Below, in pieces: positions 19,521 to 61,285 of a DNA stretch of 64,000 bases. Within the stretch, counting starts at the first letter, position 1. Each line of letters opens with the position of its first letter. The notes beneath the pieces are model-generated. The model made no database searches. It had not been told where the DNA came from and saw only the letters and a program-made list of their open reading frames with translations. The DNA lies in contig JAQUMH010000002.1 in assembly GCA_028718185.1 (NCBI GenBank), positions 4,088 through 68,087 of the forward strand, given 5' to 3'. A program made the translations under genes and the position numbers. This stretch comes from Elusimicrobiota bacterium. Lineage in GTDB: Bacteria > Elusimicrobiota > UBA8919.

Positions 19521-20165
19521 TCAGACACCCGTAAAAAGAAGCCCTTGCAAAACTGATACTATTGACCACAAAAAATTAAGAAAACCAAACGAAAGTAAAA
19601 TAAATATTATAATAATTCCATATCTTTCAAGTTGGTTATATTTATAAGCAATATGTGAAGGTAAAAACGCCGAAAGTATTCTTGAACCGTCTAATGGCGG
19701 TATCGGAATAAGATTGAAAACAGCGAGCACTAAATTTATCTGAACATTAATGTATAAAAGTTTTATAATTAAATTATTAACCGATGAATAGGGGTCAGCA
19801 CCTGTAATCTTGAAAAGCCAGATAATCAAAGCGGATAATATTGCCATTGCAAAATTTGAGCCCGGACCCGCAAGTCCGACTTTCGCCATATCTTTTACCG
19901 GATTATTAAGACGGTAATAATCTATCGGAACCGGTTTAGCCCATCCGATTAAAATTGGCGCATGAATAAGAATCAATAGCAACGGAAGTATTATTGTTCC
20001 CATCATATCAATGTGCGGGATAGGATTAAGAGTAAGACGCCCTTGCATTTTTGCAGTATCATCACCGTTTAAGTATGCAACCCAGCCATGACAACACTCA
20101 TGAACAACAACCGCAAAAAACAAAAGCGGTATAGCAAGAATTAAATCAACATTAGAAATATTCAT
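19521..20165 (-). CDS. Site-2 protease family (peptidase M50) membrane metalloprotease
   Basis: 214 aa and polytopic. HExxH (HECCHGWVA) lies in TM1 and the second motif NLIPIPPLDGS is present. Confidence 0.7.
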   Translation of the reverse strand: MNISNVDLILAIPLLFFAVVVHECCHGWVAYLNGDDTAKMQGRLTLNPIPHIDMMGTIILPLLLILIHAPILIGWAKPVPIDYYRLNNPVKDMAKVGLAGPGSNFAMAILSALIIWLFKITGADPYSSVNNLIIKLLYINVQINLVLAVFNLIPIPPLDGSRILSAFLPSHIAYKYNQLERYGIIIIFILLSFGFLNFLWSIVSVLQGLLFTGV

Positions 20166-20202
20166 ATTTTTATATTATATTCATCTGTTAGAAAATGTCA
20201 AT

Positions 20203-20256
20203 AAAAAAATCCTCAATGTAGCAGTCGCATTACTATGCGACTTTAGTGAGGATTTC
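20203..20256 (-). terminator. Rho-independent terminator of the giant-gene operon
   Basis: The minus-strand RNA reads GAAAUCCUCA-cuaaa-GUCGCAU-agua-AUGCGAC-ugcuacau-UGAGGAUUU, followed by a U7 tract. It lies about 140 nt after the 4192-aa ORF stop. Confidence 0.65.
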
Positions 20257-20397
20257 TTATTAATATCACAGTTCTAATATTTTATGCTAAACGAAACCTT
20301 GCGGATTTAGTGTATGCTTTCATTTTACCACTTAAGTTAACCAAGCTAACTCCTCTAAGACCCTAAGACTTTATAATTCTGGACTTCGAACACCTTT

Positions 20398-23300
20398 TCA
20401 TTTTATCAGTCCTACCTTCCCGGTCTTCTTCCTGCCTGTAGCGTCTCTTATCTGATAAATATATACTCCTCTGGCTACTTTGTCTCCATCGTCATTCTTG
20501 CCATCCCACTCAAGCCAGCCAAGATTACCAAAGTCTGCCTCTTTGAGTTCCCTTGCCAATTCACCGGATACAGTGTATATCTTCATTTCACTGTTTATAG
20601 GCAGGTTTATTACCTTTAACTTACCACCTACCGCCATGTTAGGTTTATATGGGTTAGGATATACTTTCACATTACTCAGGTCTGTCGCAAGATAACTGCC
20701 CAATATACGATATGTTGTGAATCGTTTCACATTCGCTGTTATTGTCTTGTTTAGCTTGTCTACTATATGTACTCCAGGCACCAATTCCCACTCCCTACCG
20801 TTCCATGAATATATCCTTAATCCTTCTTCCTTTAATTCACCTATATCCACTAACGTGTATGGGATTGTTATGCTTATCGGCTTTGTAAATATATCTTCTT
20901 CCAATACCGATGTCTTATTTGTAAATGACAATCTTCCAAAATCATAACTTATGGGTTTCACGGTATCTACATATCTCGCTGCGTTTCTTACTACCGCCGG
21001 CGTCTTTGTCTTTATCACTGCCAAATTCCTGGTTTCTGTCAATACGTTTTCGCTCACTATTATCTTTAGTTTGTTTACTCCTTTTATCATTCCGCCATTG
21101 TTTCCTATTGGTTTTGCAAGATACATATCGTTGATATTTGTCAGGGTAGGCAACATGCTGTCTCCGGTAACTGATACTGTCTCTATTTCACTATTGAATG
21201 GTATTGATATCTCCCTTTCTCCTGTATCTTCTTTTGTCAGTATTGCGTCTGCAACGTTCAATATACCGGTTTTTGAGTTCTTTGTTGATAGTGTTAGTGT
21301 CCCGCTGTAATCCGTTGTGGGGTTATTGTCATTTGTATTGTATACTTGTGCTTTGAATTTCAAGCTTGATACTGTTATAGCTGGGTCTAATGACGCTGTA
21401 TCTAATGTCGGTCCGTCTTCGTAGTAATATGACTTTAAGGTGTTACTGTACTTTATAATAGGTTTTGGTGGTGTAGCGAGTCCTGTTACTGTCTCAAGAC
21501 GAACATCATCTATGTAATATGTATCGCCTGCAGTCGCATATGGCGTAAACCAGAACCGGAAACGTCCATCGGTTACCGGAGCTGTAAAGCCTGTGGTGAT
21601 AAATTCGGTAGTAAATGTCTGCCAGCTTGTGCCAAGGTTCGCTGTGTAATTCAAACCGTAGTCTGTGTATGGGGTCCCATGCTTTAACAAGTGTACTGTT
21701 ACGGCATGTCTGGTTGGCGAATAGGCTGTAAATATCAATCTATATCTGGTATTAGGGTTAAGGCAAATTCCTGTCTGGTATAATTGGATGTTACCATTGG
21801 CAGCGGTTATTGTACATTTGGCGGATTTGGCTCCTTCAAAACCTGGTGTTGTGCTAATAAATGTGCCTCCGCCACCTGCATAATATGCCCAGGAATCTGT
21901 ACCTGATTCAAAGCCGGCATTTATAACATGATTTGTGCCGGAAGAAGTGCTTAGTGTGCTGAACGTATAATTTTCGCTTGTTGCTATATTGCCGGAACCA
22001 TCTTTACTTGTTACATGGTAATAATATGTAGTACCTAACGTTAAGCCGGTTATGTTAACGCTATGGCTTGTTACTTTTGTTGTATCTGATGTCGTTGAAA
22101 TACCATATAGTGTTGTTGTACTGTACTCTACCTGTGAATCGCTTGGTTCATTGGTGAGCCAATTTATTACTGCGGAATTCCAGGTTATATTGCTGGATGT
22201 AACGCTCGTTATTATGGGCGGGGTTGTATCAGGTGGGACTGTTTCAAGGTGTATATCGTCTACGTAATACACATCACCTGCTGCTGCATATGGGGCATAC
22301 CACAACATTAAACGGGCATCAGTAACAACAGACGAAAATCCGGTTGTTACAAATTCGGTGGAATATGTCTGCCAGCTTGTGGTCAGGTTCGCCAAATAAT
22401 TATCCAAACCATAATTGGTATATGGGGTGCCGTGTTTGAACACGCGCACTGTCATATCATGTCCTGTATTGGAATAGGCTGTAAATGTTAATTTATATCT
22501 GGTATTCGGATTAAGGCAAATTCCTGTCTGGTATAACTGGATGTTACCGGTGGATTTGGTTATTGTACATCTGGCGGACTTGCTACCTTCAAAACCGGGT
22601 GATGTGGTAACAAACGAGCCTGCTTCTTCGGTATAAAAAGCCCAGGATGTTGTGCCTGATTCAAAACTATGATTACTTATGAAATTTATGTCGCTTGTAA
22701 ACGTATTGTCTTCGCTTGTTGAAAAATTACCTGATTCATCTCTGCTGCTTACCCTGTAATGATATACTGTACCAGGCATTAATCCTGTTATATTAGCACT
22801 GTGATTTGTTAACTTAACTGTACTTAACACTGTTGAGTTTCCATATGATGTTGTTAGTCCGTACTCCACCTGCGAATCGCTTGGTTCATTGGTTATCCAA
22901 TTTACTAATGCGGAATTCCAGGTTATATCGCAGGATGTAACGCTCACTATTATTGGCGGGGTTGTATCAGGTGGAACTGTCTCAAGATGTACATCGTCTA
23001 CGTAATACACATCTCCTGCTACTGCATATGGCGCATACCAGAACATTAAACGGGCATCAGTAACTACAGACGAAAATCCGGTTGTTACAAATTCGGTGGA
23101 AAATGTTTGCCAGGTTGTGGTCAGGTTCGCCAAATAATTACTTAATCCGTAGTTGGTATATGGGGTGCCGTGCTTGAACACGTGCAATGTCATATCACGG
23201 CCTGTATTGGAATATGCTGTAAATGTTAATCTATATCTGGTATTCGGATTAAGAACGATATCTTTTTGGTATAACTGGAGGTTACCGGTGGATTTGATTA

Positions 23301-26300
23301 TTGTACATCTGGCAGACTTGCTACCATCAAAACCAGGTGATGTGGTAACAAACGAGCCTGCTTCTTCCGTATAAAATGTCCAGGATGATGTGCCTAATTC
23401 AAAACTATGATTACTTATGAAATTTATGTCGCTTGTAAACGAATTATCTTCACTTGTTGCAAGATTACCTGCTGTATCTTTACTCTTTACCCTATAATGA
23501 TATACCGTACCTGATGTTAATCCGGTTATATTAACGCTATGATTTGTTACCTTAACTGTATCTAACACTGATGAGTTACCATATGATGTCGTTAGTCCGT
23601 ACTCCACCTGTGAATCACTTGGTTCATTGGTTAACCAATTTATTACTGCGGAATTCCAAGTTATATCGCTGGATGCAACATTCGTCATTATCGGCGGGGT
23701 TGTATCACTCATCACTTCAAACTCTGTTGTTGCAGATGAAGCATTACCTGCTAAATCAATAATATTTACTTTGCAAGTGTATGTACCGGAAGAAACATTT
23801 TGCCCAATTGTATTTTTGCCATCCCACTCACAACTATAATTTCCAGCAGGTACAGCCAAATTACTTATAAGGGCTCTTGTTAGTACATCATTATTGTAAA
23901 TTTCAACATTTATTACCGATTCTTTAGATAGAACAAATGAAATTTCTGATTTAATCCTTGCACCATCTGGTGATATTACTGCAGCAGATACCGATAAATT
24001 AGTTATCTGTGGTAAAGTGGTATCTCTTGTTATTGATGTTATTTTTGATTTAGGGCTATCAAACGGAATATTATTAAACCACCTCGTCGTTTTTGCAAAT
24101 ATTGGATTTGCTCCTTCTGAAAGCGAAATTTCTGCTGAAAATCTGCCATTACTATCTGCTTTTACTGTCTTCAAACTAGCACCGTCATTATATACTGTTA
24201 CATCTGCAACAGCTTCTACTACGCCTGTAATTGTTATATATTGCTGGTTTGTTATTGTTGATATATTTGCGTCAAATTCAGGTATTGGCACTTGTGGGAT
24301 TATTAAATACTGCGAAAATCCTACTACTTCACAACTTACTTCAAAAATATCGTTCTTCCCTGATGCATCTTTTTTCCACCCTAAACTTGTTAGTGTTGTT
24401 GGTTTTACTTTGCCATTACTGTCGACATGATATGCAGTGAGTTTTCCTATATCTACATTTGTAACTTCTTCAGGTAAAAATCGCACTGTTAAAACAGCAG
24501 GAGCAACTAATTTACCATTTCCATCTTTATTAAATTGTATATCTTTTGGTTCCATATCAAATAACGCACCAAGAGGCAGAGGCATACCTGTATCAACAAT
24601 AATATCTGTATCTGACAATTTTACTGGTGTTATGCTTACAGTGGTTGGTTGTAATAATGAATCAGTGTAAAATTCTAAATATGCTTTGTTCCATGGTGCT
24701 GATACATATTTATGTTCGCCAGGAAATACTTGTTTACCAACATATACTGTTTGCTCTATTTCTTTTACACCATTACCGGCAAATACATATAACTTTATTT
24801 TGTACTCTCCATTAAGTCCTGATACATCCCAAAATGATAGTGTATTATTTGAAACAGGTTGAGTGGATATTACCGGTATGGTTTTCAATATTGTATCGCC
24901 TGTCTTTTGATAGAACATTGAATATCCCTTAAAATCACTCCCAAACGCACTACCTTTTATCTCAACAAATCTTTTTGGTGCCGCTTCATCTGTTGATATT
25001 TTTACGGTAAAGTCGTCATTAATATCATTACTATCTGTGTTTGATGCTTTGGTAAGTTTCTTATCCACTACCAAATCATTACACATAGTGCCGTCTGGAT
25101 ATTGCAATTTTATGTCCCATTGTTTTTGAGTATCATAATTATCTGCATCAATCCACACATAAGGATTGTCTATAGTAGTTCCATTTTGTTTCCAAAAAGT
25201 ATATTTGTTTTTAATTTCATCGGGGTTATTCATATTTACCAAAGGATATGCTGCAGAAATCGTTATTGGTCTATATCGGTCAGCAACTGTTGGTTCAAAA
25301 GGTCCTTCTATTACAAAATCTGCTTGAAGATTATTACCACTATTATTAAATTCATTATTTTTACTAATGATCTTATGTTCTGGCAATCCTTGGTCATCTG
25401 TTGTCATATCCCATGATTCTTTCTCGTTGGTTGTCGCTTTTAATTCTAAAAGACCTCTTTCTTCTACTATTGTTTTAAGGACTTTAGGATTTGTTTGAGT
25501 CACAAATGTATAAGGAGATGATGACGGAATATAGTCATACGGTATTCTTATTTCTTCAATTGAATTGTAAGTATCGTGCCCATTATAACAAGTATTATTT
25601 ACAGTTACTGAAGGTTCGTAATTTGCATTTATTTTTACTTCACGTAAAACAGGAGTTTTACTTCCATCATTTGTAGATAAAGTTGCTTTCCATCTGATGT
25701 ATTTTCTTGGTGTTGAGTAAATTGGCTGACCAGGGGTTGCTGTTCTTTCAGATTCCCAACTATATCCATCATCACTCGTTTGAGTCGTATAAGTGATATT
25801 CGTTCCTGAAGGTTTGTATTCAGATACCTCAAAATTTCTCCAAGACGATGGTGCTGTTTTACAATCGTGTGCTTGAGAAATAAGTGTTCCAACTAAACCA
25901 AAATTCTGAGTGACATTGTATATTACTGGAGTTGTTTGTAAATCACGAGTAGCAAAATCTGCCCTCCATTTAAAATACCGTTTCTGACCAAGTGATGGCA
26001 CTACTCCATTTTCCACTATTGGGGCGGCTTCCCAGTTAATATTTTCTCCAGAACTATTGTAGCTTGCAATCCTATATGTTATGTGAGCCCCTCCTAAATA
26101 ACCTACATTATTTTCATCACTCGTTTGAAATAAGTTCCAAATTGGTGAATAAGAATATGTATCATGTTCTTGTGAAATAAACACACCTGTATTTTCATAT
26201 CGTTTTTGGTATCCCTCTATACTATTAAGAAATAAATATGCACCATGATTTGAATTGTGGGGCTGCACAAGGATCTTAAAATATGGTGCATAAAATGGTG

Positions 26301-29300
26301 TGGGAACTTCTTCATCAAATGAAATATTTATACTAGAACCATGAGAAACTACCTGACTCCAATACTTGTAAGTTGTCCATGGGCCATTTGAACTATTGCC
26401 GTATTGCAAGTAGATATTAGCACCACAATTATTTCCATCTTTATGCCATACAGCAACACTTCCTACTACCCGTAATCTATAAAATTTATAATGCCATGGA
26501 TATATAGGTGGTACACCTTGAGGAGGTCCTGAACGACCACAAACAAACGCCCAAGTGTTTCCATACCCAGCCCATGCAGGCCAGACAAGAGTACTATCAT
26601 TTCTATCATTTGCATTTGTCCAAGATGAACTAGGAGCAAGCGGATAATTACCCGAAATATCATCGTATTGTTCATGTATTGCATCCACAACATATTGACT
26701 AAACTGAACTTTATTATCAGCAATTATAAGAGTAGGTGTTTTTTGCCCATTATAAAAAGTAGAAATATCATCATATTTTTTGGTACATATCTTAACATTA
26801 CCCGACTCTGAATTTAGGTCAATATTACTTATGCCTCCTTGTCCAAAATCTTGTTGTGATGTTTGTATCCACGACTGTGCAGCATGTGTTTGCACAGTAG
26901 CAGAAAATGATTGCGGTGAATAATATTCCCCCTTTTTTACAGTTGCGGACCAGTTGAAATTAGAAGACCCTTGATTAACTGAATATGGTGCTGGTGAAGT
27001 AATTTCTGCTAACCCACTTCCTGGTCCTCCAATAACTGCAATTGAAACTGACGCGGAACCTTTTGTCTGGTCATCTACTGCAATAACATCTATCTTGCAA
27101 GTATATAACCCTTCTACAATACTACTCCAGACTGTTGTATACTCTGTCAACCCAGATGTAAATTCATTATCAACCATCTTTACAAGATTACCTACTGTAT
27201 CATAAATAGTAATATATACTGTAGCTGCTTTTGTCAGTTCATATGTAATTTGGACTGGTTCATTTAACAAGACATCTGATTTGTCTGATTCAAATTTTGT
27301 AATCTTTAGTGGTTCTGTTATGGTTACATTTACATTTACACTAACAGATTTCTTATCCATCCCGAGACCGTCTATATCTACTGCTGTTAATTGTATCCTG
27401 TAAATCCCATTTTGCACATACTGTTTTCTAAAATCCTTACCATCCCACTGTATTGTTTCACCAGCAGTTTTATTAAAATATTCTGAATGTAAAATTACCG
27501 GACCAAATGTGTTGACATCAACCATCTTAAAAATATCCAGTACCACATTTGACTTTTTGCCGGTATTCTGCATTAAAGTATATGAGATATTCAATTTATC
27601 ATTTATTGTGGTTATATTAAACACCTGGTCAGAAATAGGTGCTGTGATATTAAGTATCGGCTTGTCAGTTTCTGGAATTGTATTGTCCACTTTTACCGAT
27701 ACTGTTATTGCACTGTAGTTTGATGGCATAGCACTATCCTGTGCAACCAATAAAATTGTATAGGTACCATTTGGTAAAGATGATACATCCCAATACGCTA
27801 ATGTTGAATTTAGTATTGCTCTGTATGATGCATTAGAATTTGGATAATTTACATCATTTGGACTTTGATTTGACACAGGTACTGGTATCGATTTCCATAC
27901 ATTCATATCTGGACTTATGTAATTGTCTGGTGTCGCATTACTATAAGTAGCATACCATACTTTGTAACACAAAAAGTCAATATTATCATTTACTACTGGA
28001 TCTATTGCTATACCAACTATTTCTACTTGATTACCAACTATGCCATTAAATACTGGTGACACTATTTGGGCAGGTATCTGATTTTTTATTACATTTACCG
28101 TCTCTTCTGCTTTATTTCCTACTTCATCTGTTGTCTTTATTTTTATAACATAACTTCCATCACTTGCAAAACTGTTATCTTGTTTCTTTCCATCCCATGT
28201 ATAGGAATATAACACATCTTTTTGTTTTACCTCGGATATTGGACTTCGGACTATCTGTCCTAATATATCTTCAACAGCTACCTCTACTGTTGCATTATCA
28301 CTTATCTTATAATATGCTGTTACAGTATCATTTTTAAGTTCTGGATTAAATATTTGTATATTTGTGTAAAGTGTGGTTACAAATGACGGTGTTCTATCTA
28401 TCTTAAATGTTTGCAATATTGGAATCGTATTGCCTATATTTCCAGATTCATCTGTTGCTTTTAATCCTAATGTATACTCTCCATCAGACGCAGTATTCCC
28501 CAACGCATCTGTCCCATCCCAAGCATATAGAAGATTTTGTGTTATATTCGGTGTAACTACAAAATCTGTTACTTTTGTAAACAATCTTGTTCCTGATGTA
28601 AAAGTAAAACTCACCTTTGCTGATGGTGAAAATCTATCAAATATATCAAATGATATATCTACACTTTTATCATTTTTAGTAAAAATATTATGGGAATAAG
28701 CACCAGGATTTATATATATACTGCCATTTGATACCTGTGGTGGTGTTATGTCTACAATTATATCGCCTTCATATACCTTTAAGTTCTCTGCCTCATCAAC
28801 TGCTGTTATTTTACATTTGTAAATCCCTTCTGCTACTACTACCCCATTGGTATTTTTACCATCCCATATATCTAAATTTGCCCCTATATTCTTTGAAATA
28901 CTATCAATAAGTGTTCTTACTAAATTATTCTGTAAGTCATATATTTTTATTGTTGTTTTAATCACTGTTGAGAAATTATCCGATAAAGTATAATCTATCG
29001 TTGTTGCCTCTTTTATTCCATCACCATTAGGTGAGAATGCAAGACAGGAATAACTCGTTATATCTGGTGGAGTTATATCGTATCTCAACGTAACTGTTGC
29101 ATTTTTAGTGTAGTCAGTATTTCCAGCATTATCTTTAAGCCAGATATATAATATATTATTCCCTTCAACAACAGAGAAATTGGAAGTAAATGTTTGAGTA
29201 TTAGGAATATAATTTGCAGGTTCCGTATTTAACTTATAATATGCTCCTGCTATTCCTGATAAATCAGAAGGAGTTGACCATGATATGGTAAATTGTGTCT

Positions 29301-32300: not shown

Positions 32301-32976
32301 CAGGAGAAGTAATTAAAACAGATAATCCACTCGGAACTGTTTTGTCTATCTTTACAGTTTGTGAATGAGTGGCTTCGCCATTACCAGTATTATCATATGA
32401 CCAATAGTAAACCGTATGCTCTCCATTAGCCCCAATTGCGAATGGCGTAGTGTAAGTTTGAGCAGACAAGTCACCATCAACCAGGTAAAGCGTTTTATTA
32501 ACTCCAGATGTTACATCATAAGCATTTAACGTTACCGTAACATCCGATTTATACCAACCATTTTCGCCGAATGTCCCTGATAAATTACAAGTTGTTGATG
32601 GCGAATATGTATCAAGGGTTATGCTATCATTTGTACTTCCTATATCAGTTGGGGAATAAGTAGTTACAAACACTTTCATATATACCGTTTTATTGCCATC
32701 TCCACTGCCTCCACCGTAAGCAGTCAAGTCCCAGCTGTATTTTATAGAACTTATTCCTTCCCAAGGGGACCATGACGAATTGTTGTTACTGAATATCATC
32801 CATTGAGCATCGGACGGTATATTACCGATGGTTAGCGTTGTGTATTTATAATTTGTATAATCAGCACCCGAGTTGATGTTCAAAGTTAAACCTATTACTC
32901 TTTGAGCGAAAGAAAATAAAAATACAAAACCTATAAAACATCTTAGTAAATAATAAAATTTAAATTTTTTATACAT
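20398..32976 (-). CDS. Giant (4192 aa) secreted multidomain surface protein: signal peptide, Ig-like/OmpL47-type domains, an HExxH metalloprotease-like domain, a series of FlgD-Ig-like domains, 3x (FN3 + CBM4/9-like) and a T9SS-type C-terminal domain
   Basis: A single uninterrupted 12.6 kb frame with a hydrophobic N-terminus. It contains HEFFHAV...NEATSVWMEDE and repeated ..SPNGDGIKE...WDGKN..G..V..G.Y motifs. Three units start TPPI(I/M)..V.S.DITWNSA.(V/I)NW.TNEPSDSQVEYG and continue N(H/A)(S/G)FE.G...W...YY(V/I)DD(V/I).LE. The C-terminus reads VYPNPYKP...GVYIYQI. Confidence 0.9.
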   Translation of the reverse strand: MYKKFKFYYLLRCFIGFVFLFSFAQRVIGLTLNINSGADYTNYKYTTLTIGNIPSDAQWMIFSNNNSSWSPWEGISSIKYSWDLTAYGGGSGDGNKTVYMKVFVTTYSPTDIGSTNDSITLDTYSPSTTCNLSGTFGENGWYKSDVTVTLNAYDVTSGVNKTLYLVDGDLSAQTYTTPFAIGANGEHTVYYWSYDNTGNGEATHSQTVKIDKTVPSGLSVLITSPGTGFTNNRIITLALLASDATSGVAKMQFTEDSNNWPSTWEDYSISKSYYINSTGEGAKTIYFRVKDYAGNISSFVSTSIILDETKPTVVSFNPPDQNQGENETITINVTVSDTIQLEKIVVIPEIGPAKEQYVNGTNDTKSFDNINLRQGINHIMIQVWDVAGNVSNIKDVYYTYGVYKTTNFKFHFRAYTISNPDVNQVNSAGWQSHNGIPDYVYNFGQYFEYSWNQIVKPGSYGYESPPSEYFVIENKLPVYILNLGNGAYGSTAYKHPILGSIIQVDNDYIGDKFYTHGTDAMQITSAHEFFHAVKCSYNPRDDNYWWNEATSVWMEDEIYPNVNDYLQYLKGFAGKPSWFANSTQSLDYINDWNEYGSCIFAKYFSERFNEKDIIRQIWDICKTTDSLSAIDSELISGHGTSLSNEFKTFTVWNYDASKYYIEGNSYPKITVLDTSAKYQYPSGVNTVMHLASHYFEFRPAPDKPTPQTLLLNFDSSVVTPLWGGKVLKVKMDGTIEEQNDLNKTGNTVSISNFDTTCSKVIVIPSNTDAFANNLDYSLIAMIPPNFTVEYFADSNLTQPLATYTGKPITKAQTIYLKITASEQLSANPTFSIDAPGTVNDKTEVATILVSGNVYKGEVNIVSGPGVEGMVSVTISGKDIGENIATNVTPTIGKEFMIDVTPPIGSLLIRDTFAPLENFTGSQQVSLYSTVSDNSEVGWMQFSYDGIIFIGDWIEYTHIYSPWWLTAGAGNKTVWARYKDKAGNISIVEIKDEIYLDTTDPEMPSGPAKAPRFAGGAYSSSTTVTFTWEGDFATDMESGISNFNIAIYNSITDSLIAQADVPNSQTNYTVDGLIHGQSYFAKVRAQNGAGRWSAWLTGGSVMIDTTSPMCVSINDGLYTNNNTQLSCNWSFTEDISGIVEYQYAIGTSQYPNTGWYNIIALTSTGTLSNITRTFDSPLDDGIYYFTVKAKNGAGSETPVSSDGIIVDTTPPDKPQSLSVSPSGWTNQTQFTISWSTPSDLSGIAGAYYKLNTEPANYIPNTQTFTSNFSVVEGNNILYIWLKDNAGNTDYTKNATVTLRYDITPPDITSYSCLAFSPNGDGIKEATTIDYTLSDNFSTVIKTTIKIYDLQNNLVRTLIDSISKNIGANLDIWDGKNTNGVVVAEGIYKCKITAVDEAENLKVYEGDIIVDITPPQVSNGSIYINPGAYSHNIFTKNDKSVDISFDIFDRFSPSAKVSFTFTSGTRLFTKVTDFVVTPNITQNLLYAWDGTDALGNTASDGEYTLGLKATDESGNIGNTIPILQTFKIDRTPSFVTTLYTNIQIFNPELKNDTVTAYYKISDNATVEVAVEDILGQIVRSPISEVKQKDVLYSYTWDGKKQDNSFASDGSYVIKIKTTDEVGNKAEETVNVIKNQIPAQIVSPVFNGIVGNQVEIVGIAIDPVVNDNIDFLCYKVWYATYSNATPDNYISPDMNVWKSIPVPVSNQSPNDVNYPNSNASYRAILNSTLAYWDVSSLPNGTYTILLVAQDSAMPSNYSAITVSVKVDNTIPETDKPILNITAPISDQVFNITTINDKLNISYTLMQNTGKKSNVVLDIFKMVDVNTFGPVILHSEYFNKTAGETIQWDGKDFRKQYVQNGIYRIQLTAVDIDGLGMDKKSVSVNVNVTITEPLKITKFESDKSDVLLNEPVQITYELTKAATVYITIYDTVGNLVKMVDNEFTSGLTEYTTVWSSIVEGLYTCKIDVIAVDDQTKGSASVSIAVIGGPGSGLAEITSPAPYSVNQGSSNFNWSATVKKGEYYSPQSFSATVQTHAAQSWIQTSQQDFGQGGISNIDLNSESGNVKICTKKYDDISTFYNGQKTPTLIIADNKVQFSQYVVDAIHEQYDDISGNYPLAPSSSWTNANDRNDSTLVWPAWAGYGNTWAFVCGRSGPPQGVPPIYPWHYKFYRLRVVGSVAVWHKDGNNCGANIYLQYGNSSNGPWTTYKYWSQVVSHGSSINISFDEEVPTPFYAPYFKILVQPHNSNHGAYLFLNSIEGYQKRYENTGVFISQEHDTYSYSPIWNLFQTSDENNVGYLGGAHITYRIASYNSSGENINWEAAPIVENGVVPSLGQKRYFKWRADFATRDLQTTPVIYNVTQNFGLVGTLISQAHDCKTAPSSWRNFEVSEYKPSGTNITYTTQTSDDGYSWESERTATPGQPIYSTPRKYIRWKATLSTNDGSKTPVLREVKINANYEPSVTVNNTCYNGHDTYNSIEEIRIPYDYIPSSSPYTFVTQTNPKVLKTIVEERGLLELKATTNEKESWDMTTDDQGLPEHKIISKNNEFNNSGNNLQADFVIEGPFEPTVADRYRPITISAAYPLVNMNNPDEIKNKYTFWKQNGTTIDNPYVWIDADNYDTQKQWDIKLQYPDGTMCNDLVVDKKLTKASNTDSNDINDDFTVKISTDEAAPKRFVEIKGSAFGSDFKGYSMFYQKTGDTILKTIPVISTQPVSNNTLSFWDVSGLNGEYKIKLYVFAGNGVKEIEQTVYVGKQVFPGEHKYVSAPWNKAYLEFYTDSLLQPTTVSITPVKLSDTDIIVDTGMPLPLGALFDMEPKDIQFNKDGNGKLVAPAVLTVRFLPEEVTNVDIGKLTAYHVDSNGKVKPTTLTSLGWKKDASGKNDIFEVSCEVVGFSQYLIIPQVPIPEFDANISTITNQQYITITGVVEAVADVTVYNDGASLKTVKADSNGRFSAEISLSEGANPIFAKTTRWFNNIPFDSPKSKITSITRDTTLPQITNLSVSAAVISPDGARIKSEISFVLSKESVINVEIYNNDVLTRALISNLAVPAGNYSCEWDGKNTIGQNVSSGTYTCKVNIIDLAGNASSATTEFEVMSDTTPPIMTNVASSDITWNSAVINWLTNEPSDSQVEYGLTTSYGNSSVLDTVKVTNHSVNITGLTSGTVYHYRVKSKDTAGNLATSEDNSFTSDINFISNHSFELGTSSWTFYTEEAGSFVTTSPGFDGSKSARCTIIKSTGNLQLYQKDIVLNPNTRYRLTFTAYSNTGRDMTLHVFKHGTPYTNYGLSNYLANLTTTWQTFSTEFVTTGFSSVVTDARLMFWYAPYAVAGDVYYVDDVHLETVPPDTTPPIIVSVTSCDITWNSALVNWITNEPSDSQVEYGLTTSYGNSTVLSTVKLTNHSANITGLMPGTVYHYRVSSRDESGNFSTSEDNTFTSDINFISNHSFESGTTSWAFYTEEAGSFVTTSPGFEGSKSARCTITKSTGNIQLYQTGICLNPNTRYKLTFTAYSNTGHDMTVRVFKHGTPYTNYGLDNYLANLTTSWQTYSTEFVTTGFSSVVTDARLMLWYAPYAAAGDVYYVDDIHLETVPPDTTPPIITSVTSSNITWNSAVINWLTNEPSDSQVEYSTTTLYGISTTSDTTKVTSHSVNITGLTLGTTYYYHVTSKDGSGNIATSENYTFSTLSTSSGTNHVINAGFESGTDSWAYYAGGGGTFISTTPGFEGAKSAKCTITAANGNIQLYQTGICLNPNTRYRLIFTAYSPTRHAVTVHLLKHGTPYTDYGLNYTANLGTSWQTFTTEFITTGFTAPVTDGRFRFWFTPYATAGDTYYIDDVRLETVTGLATPPKPIIKYSNTLKSYYYEDGPTLDTASLDPAITVSSLKFKAQVYNTNDNNPTTDYSGTLTLSTKNSKTGILNVADAILTKEDTGEREISIPFNSEIETVSVTGDSMLPTLTNINDMYLAKPIGNNGGMIKGVNKLKIIVSENVLTETRNLAVIKTKTPAVVRNAARYVDTVKPISYDFGRLSFTNKTSVLEEDIFTKPISITIPYTLVDIGELKEEGLRIYSWNGREWELVPGVHIVDKLNKTITANVKRFTTYRILGSYLATDLSNVKVYPNPYKPNMAVGGKLKVINLPINSEMKIYTVSGELARELKEADFGNLGWLEWDGKNDDGDKVARGVYIYQIRDATGRKKTGKVGLIK
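20401..20670 (-). other. T9SS-type / FlgD-Ig-like C-terminal sorting domain of the giant protein (last ~90 aa)
   Basis: The sequence is VKVYPNPYKP..KLKVINLP..MKIYTVSGELAREL....WDGKNDDGDKVARGVYIYQIRD...GKVGLIK. It fits the Por-secretion CTD pattern (YPNP at the start, G.Y near the end). Confidence 0.65.
21492..23706 (-). repeat. Intragenic tandem triplication, 3 x 738 nt (246 aa each: FN3 + CBM4/9-like module)
   Basis: The equivalent Asp codons of PPDTTPPI lie at 23704-23706, 22966-22968 and 22228-22230, an exact 738-nt period. Units 1 and 2 look about nine-tenths identical at the nucleotide level over the stretches compared by eye. Unit 3 is clearly more diverged. Confidence 0.9.
31333..31398 (-). 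other. Putative zinc-metalloprotease active site (HEFFH at residues 527-531, candidate third-ligand Glu at 548/555)
   Basis: The reverse complement of 31384-31398 encodes HEFFH. It is followed by AVKCSYNPRDDNYWWNEATSVWMEDE, which resembles the thermolysin-type HExxHAV plus downstream E arrangement. Confidence 0.55.
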
Positions 32977-32981
32977 AAAAA

Positions 32982-34172
32982 CTATTGTTTTTTCTTAATT
33001 AAAATAATATTTATTTCCTTTGTGCTGGTATTCCCATAACAATCAGTGGCAACTACTTTAACTTTATTTACTCCTTCTTTTTGAAGATATGGTTTAATAT
33101 CATCCAAAGAATATACTTTTTTTCTGAAGCTAGTAGTAAAATTATATGGGGACCCAAAACTTATACGTTTGTTATTAGAATATGTGCATAATAATGTTGG
33201 ACTACTATCTCCATATATAAACTTTATTGAACCATATATCTTGCCTTTCACATATTCTTCATATGGTATCTCATCAAACTTTTGCCCATCTTCTACACCT
33301 TCTATCTCTATTGTGGGTGGGGTAATGTCTGTTTTGGCTTTCGGTGGATAAACAATCCAAACACTATCAAAATCCTCTTGCATCGCAAACTTACTTCCTT
33401 CATTCTCTGCACCAATACTAACATTCCAGATTCCTGTTGATGGTAATACCCCCGTCTCACTGAAATTATATATATTTTGTCCAGGAGGACCATATAATTC
33501 TACAAGTCCAGGTTTATCTTTAAACTGTTCTTTAAATTCAAGATAATATTTTCTACCTCGTTCTTTTCCATACATCTTCTCTTGATATATTTCTTCCGGT
33601 AATATATGTTCCACTTTAGATAATTTTATCTTTTGTTTTTCTGTTATACTTACATCTCCAATTTTTATCCAAGCATTTGTTACATTATAAACCTCTGGCG
33701 TTTCTATTGTGCCTTTTATTACTATATTAGACGAATCTACCACTTCACTATCTTTTGGTTCAATTATCTTAACAATAGAACTTTGCTCGCTATAAAAATT
33801 TAATCTATTTTTCCATGTTATTATTTTTATTTTCTTCTTGTTCACCTCACTTAACTTATTCCATATATTTTCTAATTCTCGTTGAATATCTAATGTAGAA
33901 TTCTTTTTCTGATACAATCGCATATTAGGCTTCTTATATTTTTGAGGTAAAGAATCAGGATCATTTATGCAGTAGAACTTATACATAAATGCCGTCTCTT
34001 CATCTATAATTCCTGCATGCCGATCATCTTCCACCAAATTCCACGACCTTTTTTCACCAGGGTTAGAAACCGCTTCCCTGGCAAACATTATGCCGATTCC
34101 TCCAATCAAATCAACAAATAAACAAATTAACACCCACTTGTTAAACAATTTTCTTATCAACATTTTTTTCAC
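32982..34172 (-). CDS. Hypothetical membrane-anchored protein (396 aa), no family recognised; its stop lies 5 nt before the giant-gene start
   Basis: It has an N-terminal TM (WVLICLFVDLIGGIGIMF). The rest looks predicted beta-rich (VVATDCYGNTSTKEINI is an Ig-like-type ending). The tight spacing suggests translational coupling. Confidence 0.6.
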   Translation of the reverse strand: MKKMLIRKLFNKWVLICLFVDLIGGIGIMFAREAVSNPGEKRSWNLVEDDRHAGIIDEETAFMYKFYCINDPDSLPQKYKKPNMRLYQKKNSTLDIQRELENIWNKLSEVNKKKIKIITWKNRLNFYSEQSSIVKIIEPKDSEVVDSSNIVIKGTIETPEVYNVTNAWIKIGDVSITEKQKIKLSKVEHILPEEIYQEKMYGKERGRKYYLEFKEQFKDKPGLVELYGPPGQNIYNFSETGVLPSTGIWNVSIGAENEGSKFAMQEDFDSVWIVYPPKAKTDITPPTIEIEGVEDGQKFDEIPYEEYVKGKIYGSIKFIYGDSSPTLLCTYSNNKRISFGSPYNFTTSFRKKVYSLDDIKPYLQKEGVNKVKVVATDCYGNTSTKEINIILIKKKQ

Positions 34173-34260
34173 CTCTATTTTATCTAAAATATTATTTTAT
34201 TTTTCCTAAATCTGTTTTAGTTTTATCACCAAGTTTTACTGGTTTTGTCTCTTCAAATAA

Positions 34261-35262
34261 TCACTCGCTTCCAAAACTATAACCAATTGATACTCTTTGG
34301 TTTGGGTTAAGTGTTTCAACCAAACCAATCCCATAATCAACTTTTAATCCTTTCATTTGGAAACCTGCGCCAAGAGTAACCTTATCAATATCATATCCTA
34401 CTTTATAGCCAAATCGCAGAAATACTGTTTCTTTGAAACTATACTCAATACCAATGTTTTCCCTTATATTACTTTCATTTGGTTTAACTGTGTCAATGGC
34501 AATCAAAAAACTGTGATTTTGTAATACCGTTTTATTATATGCTATTCCTAACCTTATGTTCATAGGAAGTGCGTCTCCCTGTTCAATGTACTTCAGTTTT
34601 GTCCCTACATTTTGAACAGCAAGTCCTGTTGAAAGTCCATCAACGGTTGTATAATATAAAATACCAAAATCCACTGCATATGCAGTCCCTGAATATGTTT
34701 CTACAAGTTTGGATGAAAGATACTTTGCAGTTAACCCTAATGAAAAATTATTGAAAATTTCTTTGCCATAACCTATTGTTCCAACTATATCCTGCTGTGC
34801 TTTAACATTCCTTGAAGTACCATCAAGATTATTCCATTCAAAATTACCACCATCATAATAAAGAAAACTTGCTCCAAAACTGCCTATTCCATTTGATGGC
34901 GTTCCTACCCATCCAACTAAACCGTAATTTTCATCTACTCTGCCTTTTAAATACATACTCGCTATTTCATTACCTTCTATATTTACCAAACCTGCCGGGT
35001 TATAATAAAGTGCATTTGTGTCATCACATACAGCAACAAACGCTTCACCCATACCTACAGTTCTGGCACTTACTGTCTGATTTAAAATCCTTGCACCGGA
35101 GGTACCAGAACCAGCATAAAGACAGGAAGTAGGGAGTAGGAAGTAGGAAGTGGTAAAGGCAATAAATAAAACCAGAGATTGCCACGAGCCAATTGACATC
35201 GGCTCTCGCAATGACTTCCTTTCTAAAATTTCTCTAAACATAACACACATCCTAAACATCAA
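34261..35262 (-). CDS. PorV/PorQ-family (UPF0164-like) outer-membrane beta-barrel protein; the true start is probably Met22 at 35199
   Basis: The motif GARILNQTVSARTVGMGEAFVAVCDDTNALYYNPAGL matches the PorV/LptO N-terminal signature. Amphipathic beta strands alternate through to the C-terminal ...IGYSFGSE. Confidence 0.6.
   Translation of the reverse strand: MMFRMCVMFREILERKSLREPMSIGSWQSLVLFIAFTTSYFLLPTSCLYAGSGTSGARILNQTVSARTVGMGEAFVAVCDDTNALYYNPAGLVNIEGNEIASMYLKGRVDENYGLVGWVGTPSNGIGSFGASFLYYDGGNFEWNNLDGTSRNVKAQQDIVGTIGYGKEIFNNFSLGLTAKYLSSKLVETYSGTAYAVDFGILYYTTVDGLSTGLAVQNVGTKLKYIEQGDALPMNIRLGIAYNKTVLQNHSFLIAIDTVKPNESNIRENIGIEYSFKETVFLRFGYKVGYDIDKVTLGAGFQMKGLKVDYGIGLVETLNPNQRVSIGYSFGSE
35124..35215. 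repeat. Repeat modules forming the 5' end of the PorV-like ORF (7-nt AGGAAGT/AGGGAGT units plus a family A half-element GAGATTGCC...CTCGCAATGAC)
   Basis: AGGAAGTAGGGAGTAGGAAGTAGGAAGTGG at 35124-35153 and GAGATTGCCACGAGCCaattgacatcGGCTCTCGCAATGAC at 35175-35215 were read directly. They are translated as ...REPMSIGSWQSL...TTSYFLLPTSCL. Confidence 0.75.
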
Positions 35263-35285
35263 CGTTTATCAATTTTGCTTGGCAC

Positions 35286-38200
35286 TCATTTCACAACGCA
35301 AATCTTTTTTGTTTGTTTGAATCCTGGTCCTTCTATATGAATATAATAAATTCCTGAAGCAACTACTTCTTCTTCACTATTTTTACCATACCAATTTTCT
35401 GAATATGTTCCCGCAACCACATCCTTATCAACAAGTGTTTTTATAAATACACCGTCTATCGTGTATAGTTTTATTGTTATATGTCCTGCCTGTGGTACAC
35501 TGTAATAAACTTTACAAATATCACCTTTTATTGGATTAATCACATTATTTACAGGCAATATATGGTCTTGTTCAAGTTTTGCCTGATGCGAAGAATACAG
35601 ATTAACCAAATAAATATCACCACCATAATTACAAACCACTTTTGTACCGTCGAGTGAAAATCTTGAGTTATCATACCCAAAAACATAAGATGCAGGAGTA
35701 AGTTGCTGCCTTTCAGAACCATCAGGATTGGAAATAACAATTTTACGATTCAATAAGGATTCATCAACATATGTAATTTTTGAACCATACCAGTCAATAC
35801 CCCATTTAGTGAGTTGATAAACCATACCAGTTACTGTATCAATTACTCTATCATAATTAACAACTTTTGTAGCATCGGGAGACCATCCGATATCCCATAT
35901 GAACCATATATTACCATCTTTTGTGATTTGTGTGTTTGTTCCATTCTCGTATATCCACAAATCACCATTATAATAATAGGCAACTTTAGAACCAGAAGGT
36001 GAGTAAATCGGATAAGACCCAATCGCAATTTTTTGTTTACTTGTACCATCACTGTTTATAATGTATGTTCCTGAAACACCGCTTATTGTCCCAAAGAAAA
36101 CAACTTTTGTTCCATCTGATGAGAATGACGGTACACTATAGGAAACAAAATCAGGAAAAGAAACAAGTTTGATAAGCGAAGAAAAGTTACTAATAACAAG
36201 TTCAGTTCCTAAAATGAATGTAATTTTTTTATTATCCTGTGACCATCCGATATAATATGTTGGACTGGCGCTATCAACAGAATAAACCGAATTCCCATAA
36301 ATATCTTTCACTTTTACATAATATCTACCATTATAAAGATAAGAATACGCAACTTTAGTGCCATCGGGCGATAATACTTCAGATAAAAACGATGTTGTGC
36401 TAGTTTCAATCAGTGTCTCATTTTTCCCATTCACATCAATAGACTTTAATTCTTCTCTGTCTTCATAATTAGCATTATAAATAATTTTTTGTCCAGCATC
36501 AACCAAATTAAAGTAATAAGATAAGGTATTATTTGTAAGATTTTTCTTATTAGTAGCATCTGTTTTTATCGTATATATATTTTGTTGACTGCCACAACCT
36601 ATACGATCGTTGGTAGGTGAGAATGCAAAAAAGTCATAATCTTCAACAATTTTTATATTTCCGGTTCCATCACTGTTTATGATATAACATGAATTGGAAT
36701 CAGCGTAATAATTATAACCGAGATAGCAAACCTTTGAACCATCAGGTGACCATTTAAATTTATAGTAGTAGTATCCAGCGGTTGTTGTTAACTGTATATT
36801 TCCGGTTCCATCAGGATTAATTGTGTAAAGGTAATCACTTGGAGAGGAACCATAACAGTAAACAATTTTATTAGTAGCTGACCAATCAGGGAAACTTCCA
36901 TCACATAAATAATTTGGCGCACCACCTGTTGACGTTATAATATTTATATCACCTGAAAAATAATATACAATTTTATTACTATCAGGTGCCCATGAATAAC
37001 CCGCCCAACACTCTGCAAGATACATATACCCTGTTCCATTAATATTTATTACTGAAAGCCTATTACTATCTTTAATAAATGCTATTTTTGTGCCATCAGG
37101 TGATACTTTAATATCTTCCATTGTTGATGTAGATGTATATATTACAGTTTTTCCTGAACCGTCATTATTCATAGTACATATAGAATAATTTAAAACGGTA
37201 TCATTTGCTCTGACATATATAATTTTGCTCTGCCCGAAAATAAACTTTGCACCCAACTCAACATATTCATCATTCGTAATTTGTTTTTTATTAGAACCAT
37301 CTGCCGACATAATGTAAAGGTCAACACCATTTTCATTATTCAGTGAATAGACAATTCCTGCTGATGACCAGTCAAAAGCAGTATATTCGGCACGGCTTCC
37401 GGTTAATCTTGTTGTCCAACCTGCAGTTCCTTTTGCTGTGCTTTCAATCGCAATCCCTGTAAAATTCTGGTCTGTTTGATTCGCTGAAAGATTAGAATAA
37501 CTTTTACTTTCCGGTGAGAATGTATAATTTGTCTTTGTCGGTGTAACAGTAAAATTCCCTCCTTCAGAAATACCTGTGAATTTATAATATCCTGTTGCTG
37601 TTGTAGTCGAAAATCTTAAATCTGCACCAGTTAAACACACCAGAACACCATTGATTGCTGTCCCTGAATTATCTTTAACATAACCCGCTATTGCAAAAAG
37701 TTGAGGGGTAGAAACATCGGGTGCATCAATAGAATATGTGGCTCCAATTGCTAATGTATTCCATTTATCATATGCTTGAAAATAATATATATAATCAGTT
37801 CCGGAGGATAAATTTGTAGAATATGTAAAGAGTTTGCCATCAGAATATGAGGTATCGTTGACATCAACTTCGTTCATTATATAGGTTTTTGTTCCTTGCC
37901 AACTCGCACCTAATGCTGTGGATATTACAACTCTTGGATAATATGATTCTGGAGCATCATCATCGGCATCTGTATATTTTACTCTACATGTGAATATTGT
38001 TGAAGGACTGCCTGTTTCAGGATTTAAGCCATCAGAAGTATAATTTGTCTCACCTGTCCACGAAAGCACAGGTGCTGTATTGGTAGAACGATAATTAAGA
38101 TACCCTGACCAACTATTATAAGAAAATTTAAGTTTCAGGTAATATATCTGTGATGATGTTGCATTATAATTAAATGGATCACCAGATGAACTACTTGCTA

Positions 38201-38510
38201 CTTGATTTGTTCCTGCAGAATCGCTGTAGAGGTAAGCATTGCAATTATTGGAATAATTGGTAAAAGAAAAATAATATATTGTGCCTGCTGTCATTGATAT
38301 CTTAAACCAATCTGTTGTATCTGTTGCAGATAAATCGTGTGGTCCATCTGATTGGGTAGTTGCGGTAGGTGTTATAACTGTTCCATTTACTGCATTATCA
38401 TCTGTCGGATCCCATGCATCTGCATAAAGATAGGTAAAGAATATAAATTGAACTAAAAAAAGAAATAAAATGTATTTTATGCAACAGGGAAACTTTAATC
38501 TAATCTTCAT
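35286..38510 (-). CDS. 1074-aa secreted protein: PPC-like domain, CarboxypepD_reg-like domain, multiple TolB/PD40 beta-propeller repeats and a T9SS-type C-terminal domain
   Basis: It has a signal-like N-terminus and FAIAGYVKDNSGTAINGVLV...GYYKFTGI. There are at least 7 motifs of the S(P/S/L)(D/S)G(T/S)K(V/I) type. The C-terminus reads ..ITIKLYTIDGVFIKTLVD...GIYYIHIEG. Confidence 0.75.
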   Translation of the reverse strand: MKIRLKFPCCIKYILFLFLVQFIFFTYLYADAWDPTDDNAVNGTVITPTATTQSDGPHDLSATDTTDWFKISMTAGTIYYFSFTNYSNNCNAYLYSDSAGTNQVASSSSGDPFNYNATSSQIYYLKLKFSYNSWSGYLNYRSTNTAPVLSWTGETNYTSDGLNPETGSPSTIFTCRVKYTDADDDAPESYYPRVVISTALGASWQGTKTYIMNEVDVNDTSYSDGKLFTYSTNLSSGTDYIYYFQAYDKWNTLAIGATYSIDAPDVSTPQLFAIAGYVKDNSGTAINGVLVCLTGADLRFSTTTATGYYKFTGISEGGNFTVTPTKTNYTFSPESKSYSNLSANQTDQNFTGIAIESTAKGTAGWTTRLTGSRAEYTAFDWSSAGIVYSLNNENGVDLYIMSADGSNKKQITNDEYVELGAKFIFGQSKIIYVRANDTVLNYSICTMNNDGSGKTVIYTSTSTMEDIKVSPDGTKIAFIKDSNRLSVININGTGYMYLAECWAGYSWAPDSNKIVYYFSGDINIITSTGGAPNYLCDGSFPDWSATNKIVYCYGSSPSDYLYTINPDGTGNIQLTTTAGYYYYKFKWSPDGSKVCYLGYNYYADSNSCYIINSDGTGNIKIVEDYDFFAFSPTNDRIGCGSQQNIYTIKTDATNKKNLTNNTLSYYFNLVDAGQKIIYNANYEDREELKSIDVNGKNETLIETSTTSFLSEVLSPDGTKVAYSYLYNGRYYVKVKDIYGNSVYSVDSASPTYYIGWSQDNKKITFILGTELVISNFSSLIKLVSFPDFVSYSVPSFSSDGTKVVFFGTISGVSGTYIINSDGTSKQKIAIGSYPIYSPSGSKVAYYYNGDLWIYENGTNTQITKDGNIWFIWDIGWSPDATKVVNYDRVIDTVTGMVYQLTKWGIDWYGSKITYVDESLLNRKIVISNPDGSERQQLTPASYVFGYDNSRFSLDGTKVVCNYGGDIYLVNLYSSHQAKLEQDHILPVNNVINPIKGDICKVYYSVPQAGHITIKLYTIDGVFIKTLVDKDVVAGTYSENWYGKNSEEEVVASGIYYIHIEGPGFKQTKKICVVK

Positions 38511-38549
38511 ATTCTTTACATCCAGTTTAATAATATCTGTTTTAAAATA

Positions 38550-38577
38550 ATTATAAATATTTTAAGAACTTTGTCAA
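38550..38577 (-). promoter_or_regulatory. Near-consensus sigma70-type promoter for the four-gene operon (TTGACA-16 nt-TATAAT)
   Basis: On the minus strand, TTGACA is at 38577-38572, a 16-nt spacer follows, and TATAAT is at 38555-38550. This is about 40 nt upstream of the ATG at 38510. The call rests on the sequence match only, with no expression data. Confidence 0.5.
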
Positions 38578-52292: not shown

Positions 52293-52303
52293 ATATTAAG
52301 AAA

Positions 52304-52396
52304 CACGAATTATCACGAATGTTATGACACATCACGAATTTATCACGAATATTCGTATCCTATTCGTGATTTTTTGGTTATTCGTGTTCATTCGTG
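52304..52396. repeat. ~93-nt imperfect palindrome built from 4 direct CACGAAT units and 4 inverted ATTCGTG units, symmetric about 52350/52351
   Basis: CACGAAT is at 52304, 52314, 52333 and 52344. ATTCGT(G) is at 52351, 52362, 52380 and 52390. The central ACGAATATTCGT is a perfect 12-nt palindrome. The last unit supplies the final codons (IHE-stop) of the 726-aa ORF. Confidence 0.8.
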
Positions 52397-60808: not shown

Positions 60809-60857
60809 ATATTTCCACTAAAAATACAATAGTTTTTTGTCGGGTACATTTTCGTTC

Positions 60858-61251: not shown

Positions 61252-61285
61252 AAAAGGGATTTACAACTTCGTCATCCCAAACATT

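Follow-up and report, generated by a model that had tools for sequence, protein, structure and literature searches.

A four-gene cluster on the minus strand of a contig from an Elusimicrobiota bacterium, lying between positions 20203 and 38577 of the 64-kb stretch of DNA analyzed here (the window), raises the question of what an outer-membrane barrel of the PorV/PorQ family, as found in type IX secretion systems (T9SS), is doing beside genes for large exported proteins in a separate phylum outside the Fibrobacteres-Chlorobi-Bacteroidetes (FCB) group. In gene order, the cluster encodes a 1074-aa beta-propeller protein that ends in a T9SS-like C-terminal domain (CTD), the barrel, a 396-aa protein, and a 4192-aa giant that ends in a second domain of this kind. 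The original prediction was that the locus could be a dedicated cargo, shuttle, and anchor module. The part of this claim that stood is the cargo-linked barrel, which is probably an anchor or shuttle; the four genes, however, are not one conserved module. Instead, comparison of gene order across genomes shows that the operon is two separately conserved pairs joined together: the propeller-CTD gene followed by the barrel gene, and the gene for the 396-aa protein followed by that for the giant. It is proposed, with slightly better than even confidence, that the barrel is the dedicated outer-membrane docking partner of the CTD protein encoded upstream, the two genes forming a display cassette.

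Identification of the PorV/PorQ-family barrel

The barrel gene (34261-35262, minus strand) is an open reading frame (ORF) of 333 aa when read from its TTG codon; the likely starts are the ATG at 35241, which corresponds to the NCBI call of 326 aa, or the ATG at 35199, and the signal peptide ends ...CLYA|GSG. The product matches the PorV/PorQ family model NF033709 over its full length (1-326 of 326) at 176.4 bits against a cutoff of 90, and Pfam PorV (PF19572) at 37.3 bits against a cutoff of 27. The conserved motif claimed for it, GMGEAFVAVCDDTNALYYNPAGL, was confirmed in the sequence. An NCBI entry from a metagenome-assembled genome (MAG), "PorV/PorQ family protein [Elusimicrobia bacterium]", has the same sequence (100% identity), and a relative (P0002) from a second Elusimicrobia MAG is 82% identical.

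An AlphaFold2 model of the barrel based on 101 homologues (predicted local distance difference test score, pLDDT, 92.5) contains about 14 long strands, as read from the DSSP string, and an N-terminal plug. Its top Foldseek matches are 8gl6_F (E = 5e-16, template modeling score, TM, 0.73) and 6h3i_F (E = 5e-15, TM 0.72), the PorV chains of SprA-PorV complexes. A profile of the barrel family likewise retrieved PorV from the PDB at E = 1.8e-44, the sole other match being a FadL homologue at 9e-4. An unrelated outer-membrane protein family, such as FadL or OmpA, had been named as a possible better fit; PorV is the better match, as TodX and FadL reach TM scores of only 0.51-0.58 against the barrel model. 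The predicted identity of this protein as a PorV/PorQ-type barrel is thus borne out by the family model, the structural comparison, and the PDB profile match.

Within the family, the barrel scores 90.3 bits on the PorQ equivalog model (NF033711, cutoff 220) and 84.0 bits on the PorV equivalog model (NF033710, cutoff 250). The PorQ score exceeds the PorV score in every cargo-linked barrel tested, and the barrels of related loci reach 55-124 bits on the PorQ model. In the Pfam and NCBIfam scans, the window barrel gave no match to the PorP/SprF models PF11751 and TIGR03519, nor, at E <= 0.01, to Omp85/POTRA (TpsB) or DUF560 (Slam).

C-terminal domains of the two large proteins

Both large proteins were expected to end in a domain of ~90 aa of the YPNP type. 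Both do end in an immunoglobulin (Ig)-like domain of about that length, but YPNPY is present in the giant only, with NNVINP in its place in the propeller protein. Two CTD types can be distinguished: type 1 follows the pattern NNxxNP...ASGIY...VVK, and type 2 the pattern VYPNPYKP.... The CTD of the propeller protein (35289-35558, minus strand) is of type 1, resembles FlgD_ig and T9SS type A domains, and ends ...KKICVVK; that of the giant (20401-20679, minus strand) is of type 2 and ends ...KVGLIK.

As isolated domains, the CTDs of the propeller protein and the giant score a borderline 23.3 and 27.1 bits, respectively, on the T9SS type A model TIGR04183 (cutoff 23). On Pfam models, each with a cutoff of 27, the isolated propeller CTD reaches 24.5 bits with FlgD_ig, and the two window CTDs reach 15.3 and 18.1 bits with PF18962 and 13.5 and 21.4 bits with CHU_C. 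Neither matches the type B model TIGR04131. The homologous CTDs in related loci score 22.6-38.2 bits on TIGR04183, all passing except that of L020. The giant CTD matches the C-terminus of the PorZ equivalog (positions 669-753 of 757) at 55 bits (E = 5e-15) and that of PorU at 37.8 bits, both more strongly than the generic type A model, and all type-2 CTDs match the C-terminus of the PorZ model at 45-66 bits. A CTD profile searched against the PDB retrieved FlgD Ig domains together with the CTDs of PorZ, RgpB, PorU, and HBP35. Finally, identity between the propeller CTD and the CTDs of the genes immediately upstream of the barrels in loci L001-L012 is 31-46%. These comparisons support the prediction that both C-termini are T9SS-type CTDs, with the assignment to type A borderline.

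One close type-1 CTD fragment (P0126) carries the label of a Dehalococcoidia MAG, which is probably a binning error. Dehalococcoidia are a lineage usually regarded as having no outer membrane.

Conserved linkage of CTD genes and barrels

A scan for the barrel family, with one genome per species, yielded 27 loci (L001-L027) from Elusimicrobia, FCPU426, Desantisbacteria, Goldbacteria, Calditrichaceae, Ignavibacteriota, one Bacteroidota genome, and unclassified MAGs; ORFs were called in these loci and scored with hidden Markov models (HMMs) made from the CTDs and the barrels. For 20 of the 31 barrels, the gene immediately upstream is on the same strand and encodes a protein ending in a CTD, at gaps of -115 to +233 nt. 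The corresponding spacing in the window is 23 nt if translation begins at the listed TTG and 44-86 nt if it begins at one of the likelier ATG codons. Seen from the side of the cargo, 28 of the 30 terminal-CTD genes lie within two genes of a barrel (directly upstream of it in 20 cases, two genes upstream in five, and directly downstream in three), and two have none nearby. The passengers attached to these CTDs are mutually unrelated, range from 322 to 1914 aa, and include an amidase, LamG lectin, FG-GAP, Kelch, S8 subtilase, beta-helix, and fn3 arrays. Gene linkage tracks the CTD, not the passenger.

The barrel is therefore a cargo-linked gene, as originally predicted, and the linkage is evolutionarily conserved. 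The giant had been taken to share in this partnership, but the conserved partner is the gene directly upstream, encoding the propeller protein.

The two CTD types also correspond to two groups of barrels: type-1 CTDs accompany barrels 29-41% identical to the window barrel, and type-2 CTDs accompany barrels 23-31% identical to it. Across 22 pairs, pairwise identities of CTDs and barrels are correlated (Mantel r = 0.80, with 0 of 2000 permutations as high), a value inflated by the shared ancestry of the genomes. That some loci contain several different cassettes argues against common descent as its sole cause. Four loci (L002, L005, L017, and L023) have two or three barrels each, mostly with a CTD gene alongside, indicating that the cassette multiplies within genomes.

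In a reverse test, eight metagenome contigs of unknown taxonomy were chosen by the type-1 CTD profile alone, via short CTD fragments. On one independent contig (L032), an 81%-identical CTD is followed by a barrel 12 nt downstream, and on another (L028) a barrel lies directly upstream of the CTD gene. No barrel was present in L029, L030/31, L033, L034, or L035, and L036 is cut off. CTD proteins with no barrel of their own are thus common, the giant among them, which implies that barrels serve more than one client or that a shared pathway exists.

Several of these loci differ in layout. In Parapedobacter flavus, the Bacteroidota representative (L027, 3076-11122), a 2079-aa terminal-CTD protein is encoded two genes upstream of a PorQ-like barrel, so CTD-barrel linkage may occur inside Bacteroidota too. 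Two Calditrichaceae loci (L014, 6407-12497; L015, 2-5459) encode a CTD protein, a 362-aa protein, a barrel, and a second CTD protein; the 362-aa protein has a CxxxCxxC motif and looks radical-SAM-like by eye. A barrel flanked by two CTD genes is a layout common to the Calditrichaceae loci and the window. In L028 (126-2879), the barrel and the FG-GAP/CTD gene are split over several frames and represent pseudogenes or assembly errors.

Architecture of the operon

In the window, the propeller protein gene (35286-38510), the barrel gene, the gene for the 396-aa protein (32982-34172), and the giant gene (20398-32976) are co-directional ORFs on the minus strand, separated by 23, 88, and 5 nt in gene order, and all four products begin with a hydrophobic signal-like segment. 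A promoter-like TTGACA-16-TATAAT sequence, a 12/12 match on the minus strand (38550-38577), precedes the first start codon by 39 nt. A scan of 19.5 kb found only two 12/12 matches, both in the intergenic regions that bound the cluster; the second (20174-20201, minus strand) lies just past the operon terminator, ahead of an M50-peptidase-like gene (19521-20165). Promoter-like sites overall numbered 90, against 98.7 in shuffled sequences, so weight is placed only on the two perfect sites and their positions. At the other end, RNA folding identified an intrinsic-terminator-like nested hairpin followed by U7 (20203-20256, minus strand). The RNA from 20262 to 20198 has a folding energy of -24.6 kcal/mol (z = -6.7), which none of 200 shuffles equaled; a simple terminator scan missed this hairpin because its outer stem encloses an inner one. 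ORF, motif, and folding evidence therefore agree with the predicted enclosure of four co-directional genes by a near-consensus promoter, here a perfect sequence match, and a strong hairpin-U terminator.

The division of this operon into two pairs follows from where their homologues occur. Neither the 396-aa protein nor the protease region of the giant has a homologue in any of the 27 barrel-family loci. The pair formed by the 396-aa protein and the giant was seen again in one metagenome contig (L038), where a 35%-identical homologue of the 396-aa protein is directly followed by a collinear homologue of the giant; the latter exceeds 3298 aa and is 35-39% identical, protease region included. The gene upstream of the 396-aa homologue in L038 is not a barrel. 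A conserved third gene after the barrel was also considered and rejected, as the genes downstream of the barrels in these loci share no relationship with each other or with that for the 396-aa protein.

Proposed display cassette and alternative explanations

The direct observations described above are those of family membership, barrel fold, conserved gene adjacency, and CTD-barrel co-variation. The CTD of the giant has its closest counterparts in PorZ and PorU, where the domain is retained, and the barrels tend toward PorQ; the most likely role for the barrel is therefore that of a dedicated docking partner. In the mechanism proposed, a Sec-exported passenger, here the TolB/PD40-type propeller protein, ends in an Ig-like CTD of the T9SS kind, and the product of the next gene, a PorQ-leaning 14-strand barrel of FadL fold, would bind this uncleaved CTD non-covalently and hold or shuttle the passenger at the cell surface. 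That CTD and barrel bind physically, that the passenger is exposed at the surface, and that the CTD is retained are the parts of this mechanism that we infer by analogy. In the second pair, a small, presumably membrane-anchored protein of a rare family precedes a 4192-aa HExxH metalloprotease/adhesin with a CTD of the retained PorZ/PorU type, and the giant probably docks on this barrel as well, or on a paralogue encoded elsewhere.

Several results weigh against the docking-partner proposal. The window CTDs are borderline: in full-length scans, TIGR04183 gives 15.9 bits for the propeller protein and 17.3 bits for the giant against the cutoff of 23, so this model is passed by the isolated domains only, and all Pfam cutoffs are missed. 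The window barrel misses both the PorQ and the PorV equivalog cutoffs. The co-variation of CTDs and barrels is confounded by common descent, and the reverse test is weak, with an adjacent barrel in two of eight contigs and none in five. The giant gene does not adjoin the barrel gene, and in other loci CTDs of its subtype are paired with barrels that are more distant. Finally, the four-gene order was seen in no relative, although the closest (P0002, the source of the 82%-identical barrel) lies outside the loci inspected.

As originally noted, no T9SS core gene was found in the window, in Pfam scans covering 30 of the 34 other ORFs of >=120 aa; the four outside the scans are 1074-2147, 5034-5789, and two plus-strand ORFs (15410-15778 and 24017-24430) nested in longer minus-strand genes. 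T9SS genes have been stated to be absent outside FCB phyla (PMC11285876), and a literature search brought up no paper that connects either PorV or T9SS to Elusimicrobia, Desantisbacteria, or Goldbacteria.

The alternative that survives best, although it is judged rather unlikely, is that the host has an ordinary T9SS, with a possibly divergent SprA/Sov and PorK-N encoded elsewhere; the barrel would then be a general PorV/PorQ, and its adjacency to cargo would have no specific meaning. The matches of the CTDs to the T9SS type A, PorZ, and PorU models are what such a system would produce, and the NCBI annotation pipeline PGAP has already applied the name "T9SS type A sorting domain-containing protein" in Elusimicrobiota (P0123). 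The five CTD-selected contigs with no adjacent barrel point the same way, because some shared handling of CTD proteins must exist to serve them. A general barrel would not, however, be expected to adjoin a CTD gene in 20 of 31 cases over several phyla with passengers varying by locus, to occur in two or three copies per locus, mostly beside a CTD gene, or to co-vary with the CTD. The missed equivalog cutoffs, the reported confinement of T9SS genes to FCB phyla (PMC11285876), and the absence of core genes from the 64 kb also count against this explanation.

A self-sufficient two-partner export route, unlikely and somewhat more so than a conventional T9SS, would make the barrel both translocon and anchor for the protein encoded upstream, with no T9SS involved, in the manner of two-partner secretion or Slam/T11SS. 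The near 1:1, tightly spaced gene order in phyla with no reported T9SS (PMC11285876) would be explained, and the failure to find a paper tying PorV to these phyla is in keeping with it. The barrel model itself is ambiguous in this respect: it has a 14-strand FadL fold, but its lumen is plugged by the conserved N-terminal segment. The FadL fold has a lateral opening; to our knowledge, however, no member of this barrel fold is a protein exporter. Moreover, folded propellers and chains as long as 1914 aa occur among the passengers, not counting the giant, which has no direct pairing with a barrel, and CTD proteins without a barrel exist. Similarly doubtful is the broader proposition that the pair of passenger-CTD and PorQ-like barrel is a stand-alone display/export system without the T9SS translocon, native to Elusimicrobiota, FCPU426, Desantisbacteria, and Goldbacteria, in which the FadL-fold barrel would serve as receptor, and possibly as translocon, for its own CTD-tagged partner.

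It is very improbable that the CTD proteins stay in the periplasm, tethered to the periplasmic face of the barrel, with the propeller protein acting as a TolB-like envelope factor. The resemblance of the propeller region to TolB and the FlgD_ig or CarboxypepD_reg Ig domains fused to the periplasmic C-termini of the barrels P0089, P0091, and P0003 are compatible with such a tether. Passengers elsewhere, however, are modules typical of the cell surface or the extracellular space (subtilase, lectins, FG-GAP, Kelch, beta-helix, fn3, and CBM), and the known docking site of CTDs on PorV and PorQ is the outer face of the barrel (PMC5562754). Least credible is a FadL-type uptake channel that imports hydrophobic products of neighboring hydrolases in a nutrient-acquisition locus: its FadL-superfamily fold, the secondary structural matches to TodX and FadL, and weak Toluene_X matches among barrel homologues are outweighed by the far better match to PorV in structure and sequence, by linkage that follows the CTD rather than the enzymatic activity of the passenger, and by CTD-barrel co-variation.

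Comparison with known systems

PorZ is a beta-propeller protein with a CTD (PDB 5m11), as is the upstream protein here, and in Bacteroidota porU lies next to, and ahead of, porV. PorU and PorZ retain their CTDs, through which they are held on PorV and PorQ, respectively (PMC5562754; for PorQ-PorZ, also PMC10947112). The docking-partner proposal thus shares with these pairs a secreted protein whose retained Ig-like CTD is held 1:1 on a PorV/PorQ-family barrel (PMC5562754), an arrangement that is only deduced here. In addition, the CTDs of the giant and the other type-2 proteins match the PorZ and PorU C-termini, and the cargo-linked barrels lean toward PorQ. In contrast to those pairs, the barrel scores below both equivalog cutoffs, the body of the propeller protein has no sequence similarity to PorZ, the cassette includes no PorU-like sortase domain, passengers vary freely, and the host phylum lies outside FCB. 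PorV (LptO) is the closest relative of the barrel in solved structure and sequence, has the conserved N-terminal motif, and binds CTDs. However, PorV is one shared, abundant shuttle, whereas the barrels here are multiplied, each beside a cargo gene, and the window barrel reaches only 84 of the 250 bits set for the PorV equivalog.

The arrangement had not been recognized as a described one. Type B CTD proteins have cognate PorP/SprF-like barrels to which they bind, and the two are often encoded next to each other (PMC9143113, PMC12618676); since cargo-linked barrels have already been described, the arrangement is not unprecedented. SprB-SprF, PG1035-PorP, and the Fjoh pairs resemble the cassette in that a cargo gene is linked to its own outer-membrane barrel. 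In those pairs, the barrel is needed for both secretion and anchoring, and recognition is pair-specific (PMC12618676, PMC9143113). The barrel in the window differs from them in belonging to the PorV/PorQ family, and its associated CTDs are of the type A, FlgD_ig, or PorZ-like kind rather than TIGR04131. Two-partner secretion (TpsA/TpsB) and Slam/T11SS also place a cargo gene next to a dedicated outer-membrane barrel. Slam, for instance, is described as a 14-strand barrel with adjacent substrate genes. The window barrel, however, gives no Omp85/POTRA or DUF560 signal, and the targeting signal here is a C-terminal Ig domain.

What appears to be undescribed is the occurrence of PorQ-like barrels and type A/PorZ-like CTDs as a repeated cassette in phyla outside FCB. 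All type A CTDs have been held to be served by shared PorV (PMC12618676). With PorV treated as the shared type A shuttle and T9SS as confined to FCB, a two-gene cassette that recurs in phyla outside this group offers a minimal natural system for CTD recognition by a PorV/PorQ-type barrel, with two CTD subtypes tracking two barrel groups. It also suggests an annotation rule, namely that a "PorV/PorQ family protein" in these phyla predicts a surface protein encoded upstream. Should SprA and PorK-N prove to be missing from these genomes, the cassette would be a sign of an outer-membrane display route not yet described.

Some barrel homologues have an additional C-terminal domain (LysM, OmpA, TPR, FlgD_ig, or CarboxypepD_reg), as in L010 (474-1715), L013 (4189-5436), L004 (9986-11398), and L012 (9965-11623), as well as P0076, P0089, P0091, and P0003. 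The C-terminus of a barrel of the PorV/PorQ fold is periplasmic. LysM, OmpA, or TPR domains in this position would therefore suit a fixed membrane anchor, and the extra domains would tie the barrel to peptidoglycan or supply a periplasmic Ig domain.

Domain structure of the other operon products

The 1074-aa exported protein comprises a signal peptide, N-terminal domains, a CarboxypepD_reg-like Ig domain (aa 274-330), a TolB/PD40-type propeller region (~aa 380-980), and the C-terminal CTD. The propeller region scores 72 bits with the TolB propeller, 77 bits with the propeller part of Dpp5, and 22.5 bits with PD40. The possibility that this protein is a PorZ orthologue was rejected, as it has no PorZ similarity outside the CTD, only weak similarity to TolB.

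The 396-aa protein had been described as a membrane-anchored unknown. It does have an N-terminal hydrophobic helix, and it was assigned to no Pfam or NCBIfam family, but it is not alone: it is a member of a very small family that accompanies the giant gene. A word-index search returned the self-match alone, and the apparent orphan status was overturned by a full HMMER search of 1.84 billion representatives, which turned up nine relatives (28-45% identity); seven had E values below 1e-20, and one is named as Elusimicrobia. A single-sequence AlphaFold2 model of this protein was unusable (pLDDT 36).

The giant is an exported protein with OmpL47-type domains, an HExxH metalloprotease domain, fn3 domains, internal FlgD_ig domains, three CBM_4_9 modules, and the C-terminal CTD. 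The putative metalloprotease domain, of the MXAN_6640 family (aa 431-698; 30883-31686, minus strand), scores 180.9 bits on NF045524 (cutoff 140) and contains the motif HEFFH at aa 527-531 (31384-31398). Toward the C-terminus, a script search located three tandem 246-aa repeats, each fn3-like plus CBM_4_9 (21487-23700, minus strand), which Tandem Repeats Finder missed because their 738-nt period is above its 500-nt limit. The first two repeats are 84% identical in protein and 88% identical in DNA, the latter value indicating recent duplication. The 738-nt repeats are also a possible site of assembly collapse or expansion.

Genomic surroundings

The window has a G+C content of ~34%. All non-nested ORFs of >=120 aa are on the minus strand, the only plus-strand ORFs being the two nested ones given above, and the GC skew is negative in all but two of 32 2-kb windows. 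The 64 kb is probably a single replichore arm with strong gene-strand bias. The flanking genes have housekeeping roles, among them those for a class I (Trp/Tyr-type) tRNA synthetase, ScpA/B, EF-G, a CCA-adding enzyme, and PilT-like ATPases. Two tandem genes for ATPases of the PilT/T2SSE type (40663-43975, minus strand) lie beside the gene for a protein with cNMP-binding and GAF domains.

Farther upstream of the operon, four tandem paralogous genes (50448-58787, minus strand) encode membrane glycosyltransferase-like proteins of 614, 726, 654, and 753 aa with C-terminal TPR repeats, three of them TMEM260-like and one of the PMT_2 family; these may glycosylate surface proteins. They are flanked on both sides (47192-50413 and 58754-63845, minus strand) by genes for DUF4175 (1073 aa), GATase1-like/YtkA, DUF4159, and VWA/DUF58 proteins, and the set resembles a Bat (aerotolerance)-type cluster.

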